Assembly: GCA_965231875.1 (NCBI GenBank)
Contig: CBDDOM010000002.1
Span: 4,690,487 to 4,754,486, forward strand
DNA: 64,000 nt
Source: Alphaproteobacteria bacterium
GTDB taxonomy: Bacteria > Pseudomonadota > Alphaproteobacteria > MPNO01
Direction: 5' to 3'
Made by a program: the position numbers and the translations under genes. This document shows, in pieces, positions 24,249-32,205 of the stretch (position 1 is the stretch's first letter; each line of letters opens with the position of its first letter). The notes below the pieces were generated by a model that saw only the letters and a program-made list of their open reading frames with translations, did not search any database and was not told the DNA's origin.

Positions 24249-24598
24249 CGGGCGTCCCTCCCGGACGTCGCCGAGGCTTTCAGCGGGGCGGCCGAAGAGG
24301 GCGTCCAATCCGGATCCGGCCGCACGGCAAATGGGAGATCGGATACCTGCATCGTCTGCGCCGCCTCGGGCACCCGCAGATCGAGATGCCGGCGAGCCAG
24401 CGCCTCGAGCCGTTCCGGCCGGTTGAGATAGCTCCATTCCGCGCGCAGCACGTGCAGCGCCTCCTGTTCGCGCGCGATGTCCCGGTGGATGCCGGCGAGC
24501 CGGTCCTCGAGATCGTGGACCTCGGTCCCGATGACGATCGAGGCCGCGCCCATCACCACGGCAAGCAGCGCGAAAAGCACGGTCGAACTTCGTCTCAT
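24245..24598 (-). CDS. ftsL: cell division protein FtsL
   Basis: 117-aa bitopic protein with a transmembrane segment (VLFALLAVVMGAASIVIG) and a coiled coil, between rsmH and ftsI with ATGA overlaps at both ends. Confidence 0.7.
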   Translation of the reverse strand: MRRSSTVLFALLAVVMGAASIVIGTEVHDLEDRLAGIHRDIAREQEALHVLRAEWSYLNRPERLEALARRHLDLRVPEAAQTMQVSDLPFAVRPDPDWTPSSAAPLKASATSGRDAR

Positions 24599-25566
24599 CC
24601 CGTCCTCGCTTCCGCAACGGGGGCTTCGGTCCGCTCCGCGGCGCGCATGCGCGCCGAACGGGCACGCGGATTTGCGGCGATTTCGGCCGCGCTGGCACGA
24701 ACGACGCGGCGCCCGAGCAGGCGGAATCTTGCGGACCGGCCGGGCGCCTCGGCATCGGGCGCGTGGCGGGAGGGCCGCGGGCGCGCGGCGGAGCGTTCCA
24801 CCAGAAAGCGCTTGACCGTCCGGTCCTCGAGAGAGTGAAAGGTGACGACGGCCAGCCGCCCGCCGGGGCGCAGCAGGGCCTCGGCCGCGCTCAGTCCGCG
24901 CGCGAGCTCCCCAAGCTCGTCGTTCACGTAAACGCGAAGAGCCTGAAACGTGCGCGTGGCCGGGTCGATCCGATCGGTCGCGCCACCGCCGGCCTGCCCC
25001 ACCGCCCGGCGCACGATCGCGGCGAGCGCCGCGGTCCGGTCGATGCGCGCCTCGCGGCGCGCATGGACGATAGCCCGGGCGACCCGCCTGGCGCGCCGCT
25101 CCTCGCCATAATCTCGGATGATCCTCGCAAGGTCCCGCTCGGCCTCTTCGTTGACCACGTCGGCGGCGGTTCGCCCGGTCGAGGACATACGCATGTCCAG
25201 GGGGCCGTCGGCGCGAAACGAGAACCCGCGTTCGGCGGTGTCGAGCTGCATCGAGGAGACGCCGACATCGAGCGCCACGCCGTCCACTCCGTCGATCCCG
25301 TGCGCGGCGAGCAGCGGCGCCATGTCGCCATAGCGCCCGGCGACGAACAGGAACCGGTCGGCATAGCGGCGCCCGAGGGCCGCGGCGGCCGGCGCGGTCG
25401 CCGGATCGCGGTCTATGCCGCAGACCCTGCACCGGGCACTGCCGAGGATCGCCCGGCTGTACCCGCCGGCCCCGAATGTGCCGTCGACATAGATCGCCCC
25501 GTCGCGCGGAGCGATCGCGGCGAGCACCTGGTCCAGCATCACGGGCCTGTGGGCGGCTTCGGTCAT
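24595..25566 (-). CDS. rsmH: 16S rRNA (cytosine1402-N4)-methyltransferase RsmH (MraW)
   Basis: 323 aa. SAM-dependent methyltransferase with MraW motifs (DGTFGAGGYS, VTFHSLEDR). Confidence 0.92.
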   Translation of the reverse strand: MTEAAHRPVMLDQVLAAIAPRDGAIYVDGTFGAGGYSRAILGSARCRVCGIDRDPATAPAAAALGRRYADRFLFVAGRYGDMAPLLAAHGIDGVDGVALDVGVSSMQLDTAERGFSFRADGPLDMRMSSTGRTAADVVNEEAERDLARIIRDYGEERRARRVARAIVHARREARIDRTAALAAIVRRAVGQAGGGATDRIDPATRTFQALRVYVNDELGELARGLSAAEALLRPGGRLAVVTFHSLEDRTVKRFLVERSAARPRPSRHAPDAEAPGRSARFRLLGRRVVRASAAEIAANPRARSARMRAAERTEAPVAEARTG

Positions 25567-26033
25567 CCGCCGCCTCCGTTCCCTATACGCTGGCGCAGCG
25601 CGTCGATCGCCTGACCCTGATGGTCCTGGAACGCGTCCGGCGCCCAGATCTGGAACCGGTTGCCGCGCCCCACGAAGGTCGCCCGGTCCGAGATGCCGGC
25701 GTGATCGGCGAGCGCGGGCGGGATCACGATGCGGCCCTCGCTGTCGAAGGGCAGTTCGTGAACCAGGGCCATGATCGTTTCGACCAGGCTATCGCCGCCG
25801 CCGAGCAGGACCTGCTCGAAATCGTCGCCCTCCAGGGATCGGCTCATGCGCCGGCTGTTGAGCTGGTTGAGCACGTCGCGGCCGATCGCCTCGATGGCGG
25901 GTTCGCGAAAAGAGGGGTAGACGATCAGCGCGCTGGAACTCGATTCCGCGAGCACCGCGCGGAAGGGCGCCGGAACCGAAACGCGCTTCTTCCGGTCGAC
26001 CTTGTTCACATATGTCGACAGAAACGCGGTCAA
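25563..26033 (-). CDS. mraZ: transcriptional regulator MraZ
   Basis: 156 aa. Two MraZ/SpoVT-AbrB-like halves, and the N-terminus aligns to E. coli MraZ (VDRKKRVSVPAPFR). ATGA overlap with rsmH. Confidence 0.9.
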   Translation of the reverse strand: MTAFLSTYVNKVDRKKRVSVPAPFRAVLAESSSSALIVYPSFREPAIEAIGRDVLNQLNSRRMSRSLEGDDFEQVLLGGGDSLVETIMALVHELPFDSEGRIVIPPALADHAGISDRATFVGRGNRFQIWAPDAFQDHQGQAIDALRQRIGNGGGG

Positions 26034-26136
26034 ACCCTTCCCTCCAAGCCGTCCACGGTGCCGTCGTACCGGTCACCAACGGAGCCCCAAGCTCGTCCTG
26101 CCGAACCTTGGCAGGAATGGGACTAACTGCCTTAGC

Positions 26137-26161
26137 ATGGGAAATTATGGGGGTCAATGGG
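26137..26161 (+). promoter_or_regulatory. three direct TGGGN repeats at 10-bp phase (putative MraZ operator)
   Basis: ATGGGAaattATGGGGgtcaATGGGAcaaa, located 104-128 bp upstream of mraZ. The architecture (TGGGN with 5-nt spacers, three copies) matches the described E. coli MraZ operator. Orientation relative to mraZ is not resolved. Confidence 0.45.
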
Positions 26162-26289
26162 ACAAACAGCAAGACTTAAAGCAGAACTTTATTGTCATCG
26201 GGCATGAGAAAAAGGAGTTAGAGCGCACATTTTATGAGGCAAAGTCGGCGTTGGGACAGCTACGGTCGTCGTTGCCCTAACAGTGTGTC

Positions 26290-26330
26290 TCAATTATGTT
26301 CTTATTATGTTCTTTATTGGTCAATTGCCC
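26290..26330. promoter_or_regulatory. AT-rich tandem repeat TTATGTTCTT x2 flanked by CAATT/CAATTG
   Basis: caaTTATGTTCTTaTTATGTTCTTtattggtcaattg, within the 460-bp divergent intergenic region between mraZ and the oxidoreductase operon. This is the most AT-rich stretch seen in the window. Candidate regulator site or UP element. Confidence 0.3.
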
Positions 26331-26495
26331 GGCAACGCCTGCCAGGGATGGGCAACCCGCGGGCCAGTTAATAATGTCCACAGGTCGTTGCGAACTACGG
26401 CAATGCGGGTTGGTTGAGTCGCAAGAGGGACGGTAGGTTTCTCCGATACCCGCCCCGGCATCGGCTCGGGAGGGGCTTTCGATGAGGGAGACGTC

Positions 26496-27224
26496 ATGAC
26501 CGAGAACCGTCAGGACGAGGCGTTGGGGTTCGAAGCCTTCGAATTTCCCCCGGATCCGGCAGATGATTTCGAATGGGTTCCAGCGACGCCCGAAATTGCG
26601 GGCAATCTGACCGAACCGCGGGAGGCCGATTGGCGGACCGCCGGCACCAGCCGCCGGGCGTTCCTGCGCGGCGTCGTCTGTTCGGGTGTCGCCGTCTCGG
26701 CGTCCGCCTACATGTTCACCGTGCAATCGGGCGAGGCGCGCGCTGCGGTGCGCGGCGTCGAGCGTCTGATCTCGCTGAACATCAACGGGAAGACGCGTCG
26801 CGTCGATGTCCCGCCCAGCGAAACGCTGGCCCAGACGATCCGCTACCGGCTCGGCCTTACCGGCACCAAGATCGGCTGCAACCGCGCCGAATGCGGCGCC
26901 TGCACCGTCCTGGCCGACGACACCACGATCTATTCCTGCTCGACCCTGACCCACCAGGTTCGCGGCAGGAAGATCACGACGGTGGAAGGCGTCGCGGCGC
27001 CGGACGGCACGCTCCATCCGGTGCAGCAGGCGTTCATCGACGAGCTCGGACCGCAATGCGGCTTCTGCACGCCGGGCCAGGTGATGGCGGCGGTCAGCCT
27101 CCTGAAGAAAAACCCGAAGCCGACCGTGGACGAAGCGCGCCGCGCGATGTCCGGCAACCTGTGCAGATGCGGCGCTTACCCACATTACCTCGCCGGCGTC
27201 ATGCGCGCGGCAGGGAGGGCATAG
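26496..27224 (+). CDS. Tat-exported (2Fe-2S)-binding small subunit of a xanthine dehydrogenase/aldehyde oxidoreductase-family molybdoenzyme (PaoA-like)
   Basis: Twin-arginine signal SRRAFLRG, and two [2Fe-2S] cysteine clusters (CNRAECGACTV; CGFCTPG..CRCG). Confidence 0.85.
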   Translation: MTENRQDEALGFEAFEFPPDPADDFEWVPATPEIAGNLTEPREADWRTAGTSRRAFLRGVVCSGVAVSASAYMFTVQSGEARAAVRGVERLISLNINGKTRRVDVPPSETLAQTIRYRLGLTGTKIGCNRAECGACTVLADDTTIYSCSTLTHQVRGRKITTVEGVAAPDGTLHPVQQAFIDELGPQCGFCTPGQVMAAVSLLKKNPKPTVDEARRAMSGNLCRCGAYPHYLAGVMRAAGRA

Positions 27225-27227
27225 ATC

Positions 27228-29642
27228 ATGGCCTATACACTGCTCGGCAAGAACTTCACCCCGCCGGATATCCACGCCAAGGTCACCGGCGCCGCCAAAT
27301 ACGCCGAGGACTTCCGTGCCGACGGCATGGTGTTCCTCAAGACCTACCCCTCTCCGATGCCGCATGCCAGGGTCAAGGCGATCGACGTCGAGGCCGTCAA
27401 GAAGATGCCCGGCGTGGTGGGCGTGCTGCTGCCAAGCGAGCTGAAGCAGCCCAAGGACGCGGGCCACGCGATCCTGACCGCCTACCCGGTGTTCGTGGGC
27501 CAGCCGATCCTCGCGGTCGCGGCGAAGACCGAACAGCAGGCGGAAGACGCGATTCAGGCGGTCAAGGTCGATCTCGAACCGCTTCCCTTCGTCACCGATC
27601 CGCTGGAGAGCCTGAAGCCGGACGGGCCGAACGCCCTTGTCGGCGGCAATGTCGCCAACCGGCGCGGCGTCAAGCTGCAGCAGATCAAGTGGACCGGCAA
27701 AGACTTCGCCAAGGCCGGCGACGATACCCTGCCGATGGGCAAGCCAGCGAGCGAGTGGAGCTTCGGCGACATCGAGGCCGGTTTCGCCAAGTCCAAGGTC
27801 GTGGTCGAGGAATCCTTCGTCAGCGCGGCGAACGCGCATCACGCGATGGAGCCTCGCTCGGCGTCCGCGTACTGGGAGGGCGGCAAGTGTCATGTCTGGG
27901 GGTCGACCCAGTCCTCGTCCTTCGCGGTGCCTAGCCTCGCCAAGCTGATCGGCATCAAGCCGACCGACCTCAACCTGGTCAGCGAGTTCTGCGGCGGCGG
28001 CTTCGGCGGCAAGGCCTATTCCTACCCGTTGATGGCCCTGCCGGCGCTGATGTCGAAGAAGCTCAACGGCCGGCCCGTGCTGATGCGGGTAAGCCGCGCG
28101 GACGAGTTCATCAACGGCTCGGCGCGGGCCGCGTTCCAGGGCTGGGTCAAGATCGGCTTCGGCGCCGACGGAAGGGTGCTGGCGCTCGACAGCTACATCG
28201 TGCAGGACAACGGCTCCACCGCCGGGTTCTGGGACTTCCAGAATTTCGGCATGGCGTCGTCGGTGATCCTGCAGCCCGAGGCGATGCGGTTTCGCGGCAT
28301 CCCGGTGCTCACCAACACCCCGCCGAAGGGCGCGCAGCGCGGCCCGGGCGAGAACCAGACGGCCAACATCCTGGAGCCGATCCTCGACAGGGCGGCGCGC
28401 GAGCTGGGCATCGACCGGCTGGCGCTGCGTCTCGCGAACGCGCCGGGCGGCGGGCCGAACGGCAAGATCGGACCCAAGCAGGGGCCGCTCACCAGCGCCT
28501 TTCTCAAGGAAGGGCTGGAGCAGGCCGCCGCGAAGTGGGGCTATGCGGAGCGGATCAAGAAGACCGGCAAGCAGGCCAACGGCAAGATCAGGTCGGTCGG
28601 TATCGGTCAGGCTTATCACGCCGCCGGCTATAACGGCTTCGACGGCATGGTCCGCATCACGCCGGACGGCAAGCTTCACATTCACACCGGCGTCGGCAAT
28701 CTCGGCACCTACTCCTACGGGGCGACCTCCCGGGTCGCGGCCGAGGTGCTGGGCTATGACTGGAACAACACGGTCATAGAACGCGGCGGAACGCTGAAGG
28801 CGATGCCGTTCAATATCGGCCAGTTCGGGTCCAACACCTCGTTCACCATGACCCGGACGAACTATGCCGGGGCAATGGACGCCAAGCAGAAGCTGCTCGA
28901 AATCGGCGCGGCGATACTCGGCGGCAAGGCCGACGACTACAAGCTCGACAAGGAGCGGGTGGTTGCCAACAACGGCTCGGGATCGATCACTTTCGCCCAG
29001 GCGGCGAAAAAGGCGATCGAGCTCGGCGGCAAGTATTCCGGCCACGAGGTCGACCCGAAGCTCAACGGGCTGACCAAGGCGGCGGTCGGGATGATCAAGG
29101 GCACCGGCCTGATCGGCGTCGCCAAGGACAAGCTGCCCAAGAAGGGGACCGTCCCGGCGCTGGCGGCGGCGTTCATCGAGATCGAGCTCGATCCGGAGAC
29201 CGGCAAGGTCGAGATCCTCGACTATATGGGCGTCGCCGATGTCGGCCAGGTGCTGCACCCGCAGGGGCTCGACGCCCAGATCCGCGGCGGCGCGGTGATG
29301 GGGTTCGGTCTGGCGGCGATGGAGCGCTACATCTACGACCCCGCCTATGGCCGGCCCAACGCCATCGGATTCCACCAGGCGAAGCCGCCGACCTATCTCG
29401 ACGTTCCGGCCGAGCTTGGCTCGCTCGCTGTCGAGGGGGCGGTGGACGAGCAGAACCCGGTGGGGGCCAAGGGCATCGGCGAGCCGGTTCAGGGGTCGGC
29501 GTCATCCGCCTATCTGAGCGCGGTATCCGATGCGCTGGACGGTCACATGTTCAACCGGGTCCCCGTGGTCGCGGACATGATCGTCAACGTGGTCGCGAAA
29601 CGGCCGCAATCCTACAAGCCGTTGCAGGTCAACAATCAGTGA
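27228..29642 (+). CDS. molybdopterin-binding large subunit, xanthine dehydrogenase family (PaoC-like)
   Basis: 804 aa, starting 4 nt after the FeS subunit. Ald_Xan_dh hammerhead and Moco-binding motifs (GGGFGGK, the QGxGxxT-like QGLDAQIRGGAVMGFG). Confidence 0.85.
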   Translation: MAYTLLGKNFTPPDIHAKVTGAAKYAEDFRADGMVFLKTYPSPMPHARVKAIDVEAVKKMPGVVGVLLPSELKQPKDAGHAILTAYPVFVGQPILAVAAKTEQQAEDAIQAVKVDLEPLPFVTDPLESLKPDGPNALVGGNVANRRGVKLQQIKWTGKDFAKAGDDTLPMGKPASEWSFGDIEAGFAKSKVVVEESFVSAANAHHAMEPRSASAYWEGGKCHVWGSTQSSSFAVPSLAKLIGIKPTDLNLVSEFCGGGFGGKAYSYPLMALPALMSKKLNGRPVLMRVSRADEFINGSARAAFQGWVKIGFGADGRVLALDSYIVQDNGSTAGFWDFQNFGMASSVILQPEAMRFRGIPVLTNTPPKGAQRGPGENQTANILEPILDRAARELGIDRLALRLANAPGGGPNGKIGPKQGPLTSAFLKEGLEQAAAKWGYAERIKKTGKQANGKIRSVGIGQAYHAAGYNGFDGMVRITPDGKLHIHTGVGNLGTYSYGATSRVAAEVLGYDWNNTVIERGGTLKAMPFNIGQFGSNTSFTMTRTNYAGAMDAKQKLLEIGAAILGGKADDYKLDKERVVANNGSGSITFAQAAKKAIELGGKYSGHEVDPKLNGLTKAAVGMIKGTGLIGVAKDKLPKKGTVPALAAAFIEIELDPETGKVEILDYMGVADVGQVLHPQGLDAQIRGGAVMGFGLAAMERYIYDPAYGRPNAIGFHQAKPPTYLDVPAELGSLAVEGAVDEQNPVGAKGIGEPVQGSASSAYLSAVSDALDGHMFNRVPVVADMIVNVVAKRPQSYKPLQVNNQ

Positions 29643-29664
29643 CGGGCGGAACGGAGGCAGACCA

Positions 29665-30654
29665 ATGACCGACTATATGCACGCATTCGACCTCTACACG
29701 CCCGCGAGTCTGGCGGACGCGGCAAAGCTGCTGGACGAGCACGGCAAGGACGCCTGGATCGTGGCCGGCGGCAAGGACAGCTTCGACTGGTTCAAGGATC
29801 GGCACAAGCAGCCCAAGGCGGTCGTGGACGTCAGCGGGCTCAAGGAGCTTCGCGGGATCCGGGACGGCGGCGACCACATCGCCGTCGGCGCGGCGACCAC
29901 GCTGACCGAGATCGAGGAGAGCAAGCTGCTGCGGGACAATTTCCCGTTGCTGGTCCAGGCCGCCGCCAAGGTGGCAAGCCCGCAGATCCGCAATTCGGGA
30001 ACCATCGGCGGCAATGTCTCGCAGGACACGCGCTGTACCTATTACAGGGACGGCTTCCCCTGCTACCGCGCGGGCGGCAATACCTGCTACGCCAACACGC
30101 CGACGGCGATGAACCGGGAGCATGCTCTGTTCGAGGCGGTACGCTGCGTCGCGGTGACGCCGTCGGACACGGCGCCGGCGCTCGTCGCGCTGGACGCCCA
30201 GATGGCGATCTCGCGGGACGGCAAAATGCGGACCGTGCCGGCGGAGAAGTTCTTCATCGGCCCGGACGTCGACATCACGCGGATGACGGTCCTCGAAAAA
30301 GGCGACATCCTGACCGAGATCCGGCTTCCCAAGGCGTGGGCGGGCGCCAAGACGTATTTCGAGAAGGTCGCCGACCGCGAGACCTGGGACTTCGCCCTGG
30401 TCAATATCGCGATGGCGGCCAGGACCGACGGCGGCATGGTGAAGGACGTGCGGGTCGCGTGCGGCGGAGTTCAGTGCACGCCGAGGCGGCTGACCGAGGT
30501 CGAGGACCTGATGAAGGGGGAGAAGGCGGGGGCGGAGCTCGAAAAGCTCGCGCAGCGGGTTGCCGCGCGAGGCGCGAAGGCGCTCAACTTCAACCACTTC
30601 AAGATCCCGCTGATGGGGAACCTCGCGGCGCGCGCGGTCAGATCGCTCGCCTGA
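29665..30654 (+). CDS. FAD-binding subunit of the molybdopterin dehydrogenase (PaoB/CoxM-like)
   Basis: 329 aa. FAD_binding_5 pattern (AGGKDSFDW, AVGAATTLTEI, GTIGGNV). Confidence 0.8.
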   Translation: MTDYMHAFDLYTPASLADAAKLLDEHGKDAWIVAGGKDSFDWFKDRHKQPKAVVDVSGLKELRGIRDGGDHIAVGAATTLTEIEESKLLRDNFPLLVQAAAKVASPQIRNSGTIGGNVSQDTRCTYYRDGFPCYRAGGNTCYANTPTAMNREHALFEAVRCVAVTPSDTAPALVALDAQMAISRDGKMRTVPAEKFFIGPDVDITRMTVLEKGDILTEIRLPKAWAGAKTYFEKVADRETWDFALVNIAMAARTDGGMVKDVRVACGGVQCTPRRLTEVEDLMKGEKAGAELEKLAQRVAARGAKALNFNHFKIPLMGNLAARAVRSLA

Positions 30655-30658
30655 GGGT

Positions 30659-30805
30659 ATGGAGGTTTTCCGCTTCTCGAAGAACGTCTGGGGCCAGGAG
30701 ATACTGCTCGGGATGTCCTGGGATCTGCTCTGGGTCCCGGTCGCGGTGGCATTCGCCTGCATCGCGGCGCATCGACTCCTTCGGCTGGCCCTGCGGCGGA
30801 GCTGA
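30659..30805 (+). CDS. possible 48-aa hydrophobic small protein
   Basis: ATG at 30659, 5 nt after the FAD subunit stop. Encodes MEVFRFSKNVWGQEILLGMSWDLLWVPVAVAFACIAAHRLLRLALRRS, which has one predicted transmembrane helix. Below the track's length cut-off, no homology recognised. Speculative. Confidence 0.2.
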   Translation: MEVFRFSKNVWGQEILLGMSWDLLWVPVAVAFACIAAHRLLRLALRRS

Positions 30806-30820
30806 GTAACCCTCGCGGAC

Positions 30821-31414
30821 ATGTCGGGAAGCGCGGCTGAAGACATTCGGCACCGATGGCCGGACCGTTCGTTCCACTGGGCGATGGCGGCGCTGGTTGT
30901 CGTTCTCCTGGGGACCGCGTTCCTGCCTGTTCTCGGGGTTCGTTTCGACTGGGTTCCGATCCACTGGATTTCCGGTGTGTTGCTGACGATCGCGATCGTC
31001 TTCCACCTCTACCGGGCGTTTCTGGTGCACGGCATCCGGTCGATGATGCCGACGGGCCAGGACCTGCGGGTCGCCCTGAGGCGGGAGCCGGAGGACGGCA
31101 CGGTCAAGTACGACCTCAACCAGAAGCTCTACCACTGGTCGGTAGCGGCGGTGATGCTCGTCCTCGTGGTCTCCGGTTGCATCATGCTCGCCAAGATCGA
31201 CACGCCTCTCTGGCGGCGCGACCCGTCGATCCTCTCGGACGGGAATTGGGGCGTGGTTTATGTCTGCCACGGGGCGGCATCGCTGGCGCTGATCTTCTTC
31301 TTTATCCTGCATCTCTATTTCGCGTTCCTCCCGGAGCACCGGCGGCTGCTCGCGGCCATGGTGCTGGGCCGCGAAACCTGGAGGCCGGAACGAACGCCGG
31401 AGCGGCAATCATGA
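30821..31414 (+). CDS. membrane b-type cytochrome (Ni/Fe-hydrogenase / FdnI-like cytochrome b561 family)
   Basis: 197 aa. Four predicted transmembrane helices, each with a conserved His (SFHWAM, IVFHLY, LYHWSV, YVCHGA/ILHLYF). Likely the membrane anchor and quinone-reducing partner of the upstream periplasmic molybdoenzyme. Confidence 0.6.
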   Translation: MSGSAAEDIRHRWPDRSFHWAMAALVVVLLGTAFLPVLGVRFDWVPIHWISGVLLTIAIVFHLYRAFLVHGIRSMMPTGQDLRVALRREPEDGTVKYDLNQKLYHWSVAAVMLVLVVSGCIMLAKIDTPLWRRDPSILSDGNWGVVYVCHGAASLALIFFFILHLYFAFLPEHRRLLAAMVLGRETWRPERTPERQS

Positions 31415-31791
31415 GCAGTCCCGAAACCATCCGGACGCATATCGAGCGCGTCGAGGAAGCCTATGAGTTCATGCTCGCCTATGCCGCCCAGGGCCGCGGC
31501 GACGAAGGCGCGGGCCCGGACGGAACCCATATCAGGACTTTCCTGAATCAGTTCGACGCGGCGGTCGCCGCGATTGTCGGCGAACTCGACACGGTGCCCG
31601 GCGCCGGGGAGGAGGCCGCGGCGTTCCTGGCCGCGCTGAGGGCGGATTCGGAGATCGTGACATCGGTTCTCCGGGCCATGCTCGCGCGCGACCGGATCAC
31701 CTCCGAGGTGGTGGACAATGCGAACGGGCTGATCTCGGTCCGCTCTTACCTGACCGGGCTGTTCTTTCTCGACAAGGCGTTGCTCCCGTGA
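31411..31791 (+). CDS. hypothetical 126-aa protein translationally coupled to the cytochrome b gene
   Basis: The ATG at 31411 overlaps the TGA of the preceding gene (ATGA). In the track it is buried in the over-extended ORF 30856..31791. No recognisable motif. Confidence 0.45.
   Translation: MSSPETIRTHIERVEEAYEFMLAYAAQGRGDEGAGPDGTHIRTFLNQFDAAVAAIVGELDTVPGAGEEAAAFLAALRADSEIVTSVLRAMLARDRITSEVVDNANGLISVRSYLTGLFFLDKALLP

Positions 31792-31821: not shown

Positions 31822-32205
<384 letters not shown>

Follow-up and report, generated by a model that had tools for sequence, protein, structure and literature searches.

To our knowledge, MraZ is among the most conserved bacterial regulators, and its operator has been characterized only in E. 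coli, Bacillus and Mycoplasma. For E. coli, Eraso et al. reportedly described in 2014 an mraZ operator of three TGGGN direct repeats at the promoter Pmra. In the MG1655 sequence, the elements follow one another as TTGACA-N17-TAAACT-cctttcaG-TGGGAaattgTGGGGcaaagTGGGA-...-ATG, with the boxes on the coding strand and 3' of the -10 hexamer. In Mycoplasma genitalium, the operator has four boxes one helical turn apart (PMC12957436), and several boxes with the same spacing make up the binding repeats of MraZ in Bacillus subtilis (bioRxiv 10.1101/2022.02.09.479790). Here, we describe the region upstream of mraZ in a 64,000-nt stretch of an alphaproteobacterial genome (GTDB lineage Bacteria; Pseudomonadota; Alphaproteobacteria; MPNO01; assembly GCA_965231875.1, contig CBDDOM010000002.1, positions 4,690,487 to 4,754,486; the whole stretch is called the window, and its first letter is position 1). 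Two elements of this region of 462 bp (26034..26495) are considered, an array of TGGG boxes close to mraZ and an AT-rich tandem repeat farther upstream. As judged by comparative sequence analysis, the array and the promoter that it encloses are very probably an MraZ operator built into the core promoter of mraZ, and the combined reading, in which this operator is accompanied by a LexA-type box that also belongs to the mraZ side, is likely.

The sequence ATGGGAaattATGGGGgtcaATGGGA is read on the + strand at 26137..26161, exactly where an earlier note on this DNA had located three direct repeats with 5-nt spacers, about 100-130 bp upstream of mraZ. The spacing is real and the distance holds (105-128 nt 5' of the mraZ TTG start at 26033 for these three boxes), but the array has four boxes and not three. 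The TGGG cores, all on the + strand, start at 26118, 26138, 26148 and 26158 with spacings of 20, 10 and 10 bp, and the whole array lies 85-128 nt from the start codon. The fourth box (AATGGGAC, 26116..26123) is 20 bp from the third and therefore has the same helical phase as the other boxes, and its flanking sequence recurs at the first box (AATGGGAC(T/A)AAC(T/A)GC, repeat family D1). Such an arrangement is rare in the window: TGGG-N6-TGGG-N6-TGGG has one match in 64 kb on both strands and none in 100 dinucleotide-preserving shuffles, and ATGGG-N5-ATGGG is found only at the mraZ array (2 overlapping matches, 0.14 expected). Two-box TGGG-N6-TGGG pairs elsewhere in the window (20781 and 42864) occur at chance level and were set aside.

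Seen on the sense strand of mraZ, the boxes are CCCAT and alternate with the elements of a predicted promoter, P_mra, as gtCCCA-TTGACC-CCCAT-aattt-CCCATG-c-TAAGGC-agttagt-CCCAtt (5' to 3'). The -35 hexamer TTGACC (26152..26157, - strand) lies between boxes 1 and 2, and is separated by a 17-nt spacer (TTGACC-N17-TAAGGC) from the -10 hexamer, which belongs to an extended -10, TG-c-TAAGGC (26129..26137, - strand). From the positions of these elements, a transcription start is expected near 26123/26124 on the - strand, with a leader of about 90 nt. Relative to this start, box 1 (26158..26161, +) occupies -38 to -35, box 2 (26148..26151, +) occupies -28 to -25 within the promoter spacer, and box 3 (26138..26141, +) occupies -18 to -15, its flank giving the TG of the extended -10. 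Box 4 (26118..26121, +; CCCA on the mraZ strand) would be at about +2 to +5.

The earlier note had proposed to test the TGGG triplets for conservation and phasing in orthologous mraZ leaders, and both are seen. Using an MraZ-protein scan with one genome per species, we collected 80 loci with protein identities from 85% down to 41%, from Defluviicoccus, other Rhodospirillales-type metagenome-assembled genomes (MAGs), Stellaceae and Azospirillum; with the window, the set has 81 loci (numbered from L001 upward where single loci are named). At least three CCCA boxes in 10-bp phase are present on the mraZ sense strand in 68 of the 81, and phased TGGG on that strand in none (0/81). TTGAC is found in 78/81 and the longer pattern TTGAYN-N14-TGnTA in 62/81, and the box consensus across the loci is (t/a)CCCAT(g). 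When 12 species were aligned, the boxes (among them box 4) and the promoter elements formed invariant columns, including TG and TA of the extended -10 and the invariant or nearly invariant TTGA of the -35, whereas the other columns drift. An extra box (TATCCCA) covers the -10 in most lineages outside the Defluviicoccus clade, five boxes at 10 bp are present in L018, and L014, L016 and L020 show spacings of 21-10-10; these lineage variants gain or drop boxes only at in-phase positions.

The same arrangement extends beyond Rhodospirillales, where loci were found via MraZ query sequences with 94% and 88% identity to their best database matches. Rhizobium etli CFN42 and a Sinorhizobium carry gtCCCATTGACGCCCATATGGTCCCATG(c/t)TATCCCAaa, i.e. 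CCCATTGACGCCCATATGGTCCCATGyTATCCCA, with rnpB directly upstream, and four roseobacters have a degenerate array, TTGATTTCCATGAATTCCCATGGCATCCC, at the orthologous position. The opposite orientation of the TGGGN repeats, which had made the first assignment tentative, is thus a real feature that is conserved in all three sampled alphaproteobacterial orders, and as the conserved state it is no argument against an operator. In addition, the start predicted from the embedded promoter falls about 171 nt upstream of mraZ in Sinorhizobium and about 266 nt upstream in roseobacters. Published mraZ leaders measure 170 nt in Sinorhizobium meliloti and 268 nt in Rhodobacter sphaeroides; the latter begins at the UpsM start, and R. 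sphaeroides has no promoter closer to mraZ (PMC5089854). Because the predicted and published starts agree in these other species, they give indirect support to the box-embedded hexamers as a real promoter.

Two further observations were made in these loci. First, R. etli CFN42 (L162, CP000133.1, 1201..1830) and many Rhizobium MraZ database entries have 209-211 amino acids and not 146; their start is called 63 codons early, and the resulting open reading frame (ORF) crosses the promoter, the MraZ boxes and the 5' untranslated region. Second, more TGGGA arrays in 10-bp phase are found in the roseobacters L164 (-451, -586), L165 (-657, -633, -610) and L167 (-625), 300-350 nt upstream of the mraZ promoter, in sense orientation and beside a divergent YjiS-like gene. 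These arrays may be a second MraZ site or an operator of the divergent promoter.

The assignment to MraZ itself draws on both the DNA and the protein. The TGGG core, the 10-bp period, the copy number of three to five and the position at mraZ's own promoter define the MraZ operators known from E. coli, B. subtilis and Mycoplasma. In the cryo-electron microscopy structure of M. genitalium MraZ, each box is read by one subunit, through major-groove contacts of Lys13, Arg15 and Arg86 (PMC12957436). We aligned six MraZ sequences (window, a Defluviicoccus relative, Azospirillum, Rhizobium, Ruegeria and E. coli), and D13-x-K15-x-R17 and D97-x-x-G100-R101 (DxKxR, DxxGR) are invariant in all of them; D13/K15/R17 and D97/R101 of the window protein correspond to Asp11/Lys13/Arg15 and Asp82/Arg86 of M. 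genitalium, and the base-contacting residues are therefore intact. It is very improbable, in our estimate, that the CCCAT motifs are instead features intrinsic to the promoter (phased bends, or the context of the -35 and extended -10) or sites of another alphaproteobacterial factor. Two of the boxes do double as promoter, the T of CCCAT opening TTGAC and CCCATG supplying the TG of the extended -10. However, boxes 2 and 4 serve no promoter element and are invariant all the same, and a purely promoter-intrinsic motif also has to be set against extra boxes that come and go solely at 10-bp-phase positions.

Two results count against an MraZ operator embedded in a promoter. First, the base 5' of TGGG is A where the published consensus GTG(G/T) has G, and 3 of its 4 positions are matched; the A in this first box position also fits the alternative of another factor. 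Second, a simple sigma-70 promoter scan of 25900..26600, which demands T at -10 position 6, returned no promoter. Since the conserved alphaproteobacterial -10 (TAAGGC / TATCCC) has no T at position 6, we did not count the empty scan against P_mra, and we retain the MraZ operator as the preferred reading of the array.

Compared with E. coli, the locus shares TGGGN boxes with 5-nt spacers and a 10-bp period at the mraZ promoter, and the E. coli box string TGGGAaattgTGGGGcaaagTGGGA is almost identical to TGGGAaattaTGGGGgtcaaTGGGA of the window. The presumed logic, autorepression of the dcw operon (division and cell wall), is also the same. In contrast to the E. coli boxes on the coding strand downstream of the -10, those of the window lie on the opposite strand and overlap the -35, spacer and start site; they number four, one in-phase position being empty, and A replaces G before TGGG. 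The strand and position of the E. coli boxes are matched neither in the window nor in any of the sampled alphaproteobacteria, which marks them as a trait of the prototype and not as one that defines the family. The four-box format and helical-turn spacing of M. genitalium are found in the window, and the start site inside a box, known from that organism (PMC12957436), is predicted likewise for box 4. Spacing by one helical turn is shared with B. subtilis as well. The box sequences differ, being GTG(T/G) or GTGG(A/T)G in M. genitalium and B. subtilis and ATGGG in the window. In the literature on MraZ operators, which covers E. coli, Firmicutes and Mollicutes, we found no description of an inverted promoter-embedded array; the operator is of a known kind, and its architecture (four to five boxes in inverted orientation inside the promoter, with A before TGGG) seems to be undescribed.

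We propose that an MraZ oligomer would bind the boxes head-to-tail, against the direction of transcription and all on one face of the helix. Bound MraZ would cover -38 to +5, which includes the -35, the spacer and the start site, and would exclude sigma-70 RNA polymerase. Such occlusion at P_mra would lead to negative autoregulation of mraZ-rsmH-ftsL-ftsI and the genes downstream. With repression by occlusion, the polarity of the array should not matter.

The mraZ leader of R. sphaeroides, from which the small RNA (sRNA) UpsM is made (PMC5089854), is a described alphaproteobacterial case for comparison. The loci have in common the synteny of rnpB and mraZ, leaders with several elements and an alphaproteobacterial mraZ promoter, and in the four roseobacters the start predicted from the box-in-promoter at about -266 matches the UpsM start. 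The UpsM paper leaves MraZ boxes unmentioned (PMC5089854). On the other hand, the leader predicted for the window is short, at about 90 nt, and lacks both a strong terminator and an UpsM-like sRNA; an UpsM-type leader (about 270 nt, with a strong intrinsic terminator 60-90 nt before mraZ and no promoter nearer to the gene) is not what the window carries. The UpsM-type terminator is present in R. pomeroyi (L164).

The second element of the region is the AT-rich direct repeat, which had been noted about 135 bp beyond the array. It is a perfect tandem of the 11-mer ATTATGTTCTT (26293..26314), lies 133 bp beyond the TGGG array and has 45-52% G+C compared with about 67-70% in its flanks. On the - strand it reads AAGAACATAAT-AAGAACATAAT, with the core GAAC-N7-GAAC at 26298..26312. 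This core (GTTCTTATTATGTTC) fits GTTC-N7-GTTC, the LexA motif of alphaproteobacteria (PMC7987155; 10.1101/2025.01.26.634973). The bare motif is not rare by itself (2 observed in the window, 2.05 expected), and the significance of the repeat therefore rests on its conservation across species. An exact GAAC-N7-GAAC is found in 37 of the 81 mraZ loci at -220 to -380, including that of the cultured Azospirillum lipoferum, in sense orientation in all carriers and in the opposite orientation in none, and with a 7-nt spacer that varies. The letters of GAAC/GAAC reach 2 bits of information content, and those of the spacer about 0-0.9 bits. The extended form GAAC[AT]-N6-GAAC[AT] occurs 38 times in 538 kb, of which 32 are at the mraZ position; the other 6 matches all come from one homologous signal-peptide coding sequence and were dismissed.

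Synteny assigns the box to mraZ and not to the genes on its other side. The divergent neighbour in the window is a five-gene block on the + strand (26496..31791) that includes, by domain match, the 2Fe-2S subunit (26496..27224), the molybdopterin subunit (27228..29642) and the FAD (flavin adenine dinucleotide) subunit (29665..30654) of one xanthine-dehydrogenase-family enzyme, followed up to 31791 by two more + strand ORFs, a membrane protein and an ORF of 126 amino acids. Beyond it lies rnpB, the RNase P RNA (31823..32200, - strand; Rfam RF00010, 290 bits), which is co-directional with mraZ. In 14 scanned loci (L010-L014, L017-L019, L040, L065, L068, L072, L077 and L079), rnpB stands directly upstream of the box and mraZ and there is no oxidoreductase operon, and rnpB is also the immediate upstream neighbour of mraZ in Rhizobium and Sinorhizobium. 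By this comparison, rnpB is the ancestral co-directional upstream neighbour of mraZ. The oxidoreductase block of the window and L001-L009 is an insertion that separates rnpB from the box, which remained with mraZ. The earlier note had suggested that the repeat may serve the divergent Tat-oxidoreductase operon. A control site of this Tat-type molybdenum enzyme would be well placed about 180 bp upstream of the 2Fe-2S gene at 26496, and in the Defluviicoccus-type clade (window, L001-L009) box and operon always occur together. However, loci in which rnpB is the neighbour and the operon is absent have this box too, equally oriented and about as far from mraZ. This largely refutes the suggestion, to which we give hardly any credence, and because the box is retained in one orientation without the operon, the AT-rich repeat belongs to the mraZ side.

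The LexA motif was compared with a positive control of 80 metagenomic lexA loci, fetched with a LexA query sequence (97% identity to its best match). GAAC-N7-GAAC or GTTC-N7-GTTC was present upstream of lexA in 77 of 78 lexA loci, and the 72 non-redundant promoters among these gave the consensus gGAACAcAantgGAACAtaTA / TTGCgGAACAcAnntgGAACAtATAGTG, with the core GAACA-N6-GAACAt. The window sequence aGAACATAATAAGAACATAAT matches every consensus position of GAACA-N6-GAACAT, the lexA loci being of Rhizobiales type and not of the window's lineage. We lean towards reading the AT-rich repeat as a predicted LexA-type box. It resembles the SOS boxes of lexA and of Caulobacter genes such as sidA in the exact core, the GAACA/GAACAT extension, the AT-rich spacer and the direct-repeat geometry. 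It differs in its position: in lexA promoters the box lies between the -35 (TTGCGG) and the -10 (TAGTGT), 60-80 nt from the gene, whereas in the window it is about 280 nt from mraZ and about 150 bp upstream of the recognisable promoter, and has no identifiable -35.

Perfect 11-bp tandems can be bound by other proteins. A different regulator of direct repeats spaced by one helical turn (for example a response regulator of the OmpR/PhoB type, linked to cell cycle or envelope) might activate or repress mraZ transcription from this site with LexA uninvolved, which we regard as unlikely although it is the strongest of the competing explanations of the repeat. Direct repeats with an 11-bp period are also typical of winged-helix response regulators, and no promoter that overlaps the box was identified. 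A CenR chromatin immunoprecipitation signal has been reported upstream of mraZ in R. sphaeroides without a motif of its own (PMC9275681), and mraZ has CtrA motifs upstream in S. meliloti (PMC3616915) and secondary starts in agrobacteria (PMC10469942). Against such a regulator, what is invariant is precisely GAAC...GAAC, extended by A(T) as in autoregulated lexA promoters; the repeat does not fit the CenR motif TGA-N8-TGA in a by-eye comparison, and the region has no match to CtrA TTAA-N7-TTAA with up to one mismatch.

For a LexA-type box, what it would control is a separate question. The box lies about 190 bp upstream of the P_mra start, and the most likely arrangement would be a weak second promoter at the box, reading towards mraZ and repressed by LexA. 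A -10-like CATAAT overlaps the promoter-proximal half-site and could serve this promoter. DNA damage would then remove LexA and couple transcription of the dcw leader to damage. There is ample precedent for a link of cell division with the SOS response. Secondary start sites are known from agrobacterial mraZ genes (PMC10469942), and a second, differently regulated mraZ promoter therefore has a precedent. We put forward this LexA-repressed promoter only tentatively and consider it doubtful.

Several results weigh against a LexA-type box that acts on mraZ. Among the 81 loci, about half (for the most part Stellaceae-like MAGs) do not have the box, and it is also missing from Rhizobiales and from three of the four roseobacters. 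In a fixed-distance -35/-10 search of 34 non-redundant sequences, only CATAaT at the proximal half-site was conserved near the box, and no convincing -35 was found beside it in any lineage. In several loci, rnpB ends just 13-30 nt before the box. From the box to P_mra, no conserved small ORF, Rfam family or terminator was found. In the literature, we found no listing of mraZ or dcw as a LexA target in Alphaproteobacteria. The GTTC-N7-GTTC of R. pomeroyi, 49 nt upstream of its promoter, was rejected as a chance match, as it is not in the three other roseobacters.

The distance between the box and P_mra invites another explanation, in which a separate short transcript (an SOS sRNA, or one for a SidA-like micro-peptide), located between the two, has the box as its promoter and operator. 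There are about 100-160 nt between the two in all lineages, and a GC hairpin followed by UUUCCUC stands about 100 nt after the box in L008 and L009. Rhodobacteraceae do produce the sRNA UpsM from the mraZ leader (PMC5089854), and in other bacteria the SOS response as a rule induces small inhibitors of division (sidA, Caulobacter; 10.1101/2025.01.26.634973). In contrast, no part of the region is less conserved than the stretch from the box to P_mra. Single-sequence folds of this spacer gave no hairpin or U-tract conserved across lineages and there is no Rfam match. No ORF is kept in frame or in its amino acids: when small ORFs were examined from the box to P_mra on both strands in 30 loci, the recurrent candidate ending in ...SH* recurred only through a stop inside the conserved CCCATTGA, and its substitutions were neither biased towards synonymous changes nor towards third positions. 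We consider a separate transcript improbable, and of the two ways in which a LexA-type box could act we prefer the repressed promoter towards mraZ.

The mraZ gene (25563..26033, - strand; Pfam MraZ PF02381) has a TTG start that is conserved in relatives, and is preceded by a Shine-Dalgarno sequence GGAGG (26041..26045, - strand) that is invariant in the alignment and 8 nt before the start codon. Next comes rsmH (24595..25566; MraW methylase by Pfam), with ftsI (penicillin-binding protein transpeptidase by Pfam) downstream of rsmH. In the predicted 5' untranslated region, a leader hairpin CCUGCC-aagguuc-GGCAGG (26097..26115, - strand) was found with RNAalifold in 10 relatives; its 6-bp stem is retained, with two-sided changes in two pairs, which is modest support. 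The leader also has a conserved sense-strand TGGGG at 26085..26089 (- strand), about 50 nt before the start codon, which could be a lone box in the E. coli orientation. RNAalifold pairs it with the CCCA of box 4; these pairs are invariant and therefore uninformative.

Just 5' of the -35 lies a partly conserved AT-rich block, GACAATAAAGTTCTGCTTTAAGT... (26162..26200, - strand). Its sequence, GACAATAAAGTTCTGCTTTAAGTCTTGC, is kept in close relatives and has AT-rich equivalents in other clades, and the block may be an UP-like element or another regulator's site. About 70 nt upstream of the -35, a conserved element CTACATGATGTGG is found in several Stellaceae-like and related loci, among them loci without a LexA-type box (L024, L047 and L048) and some with one (L040, L065, L072 and L079). 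The other searches returned little. A simple terminator scan of 25900..26600 found no terminator, Rfam at E<=1 on 25000..27500 gave nothing relevant, and the whole window at the Rfam gathering threshold gave rnpB only; the window has no tRNAs. Scans of the intergenic region for CtrA-type TTAA-N7-TTAA (up to one mismatch) and for DnaA boxes gave no matches, and one GANTC site at 26416 was the sole match in the CtrA/DnaA/GANTC-type scan.

DnaA-box-like sequences were noticed at two places. In the window, GTTCGCAAC-N4-TGTGGA(C/T)ATTAT is read at 26367..26395 (- strand), about 100 nt upstream of the oxidoreductase start; this GTTCGCAAC element is also present in L001, L002 and L006 and not in L003-L005 or L007. 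In the Azospirillum loci L068, L073-L075, L077 and L078, a DnaA-box-like sequence stands 3-10 nt after the LexA-type box (about -296 to -277 in L077). It is a perfect inverted pair, TGTGGATAA-nn-TTATCCACA, in L073, L077 and L078; the first arm is degenerate in L068 and L075 (TGTGGACAA and TGTGGCCAC, respectively), and L074 retains the TTATCCACA arm only. This suggests a DnaA input to the mraZ upstream region in Azospirillum.

Taken at its widest, the locus would have the following meaning, which we offer as speculation with rather low confidence: in bacteria of the Defluviicoccus and Azospirillum type, a LexA-gated upstream dcw promoter would stand beside an MraZ-gated one, MraZ would join the SOS division checkpoint, and the MraZ filament would repress in either polarity. 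Too much MraZ stops E. coli and B. subtilis from dividing, and we know of no recognised SulA/SidA-type inhibitor in these lineages. If neither the MraZ operator nor the LexA-type box holds, the region would be an ordinary autoregulated promoter. Several benefits follow from the promoter-embedded array. The flipped boxes fused to a core promoter are a natural test of the polarity of the MraZ filament in repression. In addition, the box-embedded promoter would explain where the published mraZ transcripts of S. meliloti and Rhodobacter (UpsM) start, and it is a pointer to widespread mis-annotated mraZ start codons. The predicted LexA link to the mraZ side is a new regulatory lead. If it is true, DNA damage would raise transcription of the mraZ leader and of MraZ, and the LexA-type box would be a direct, previously unlisted wire from the SOS response to the division and cell-wall operon.

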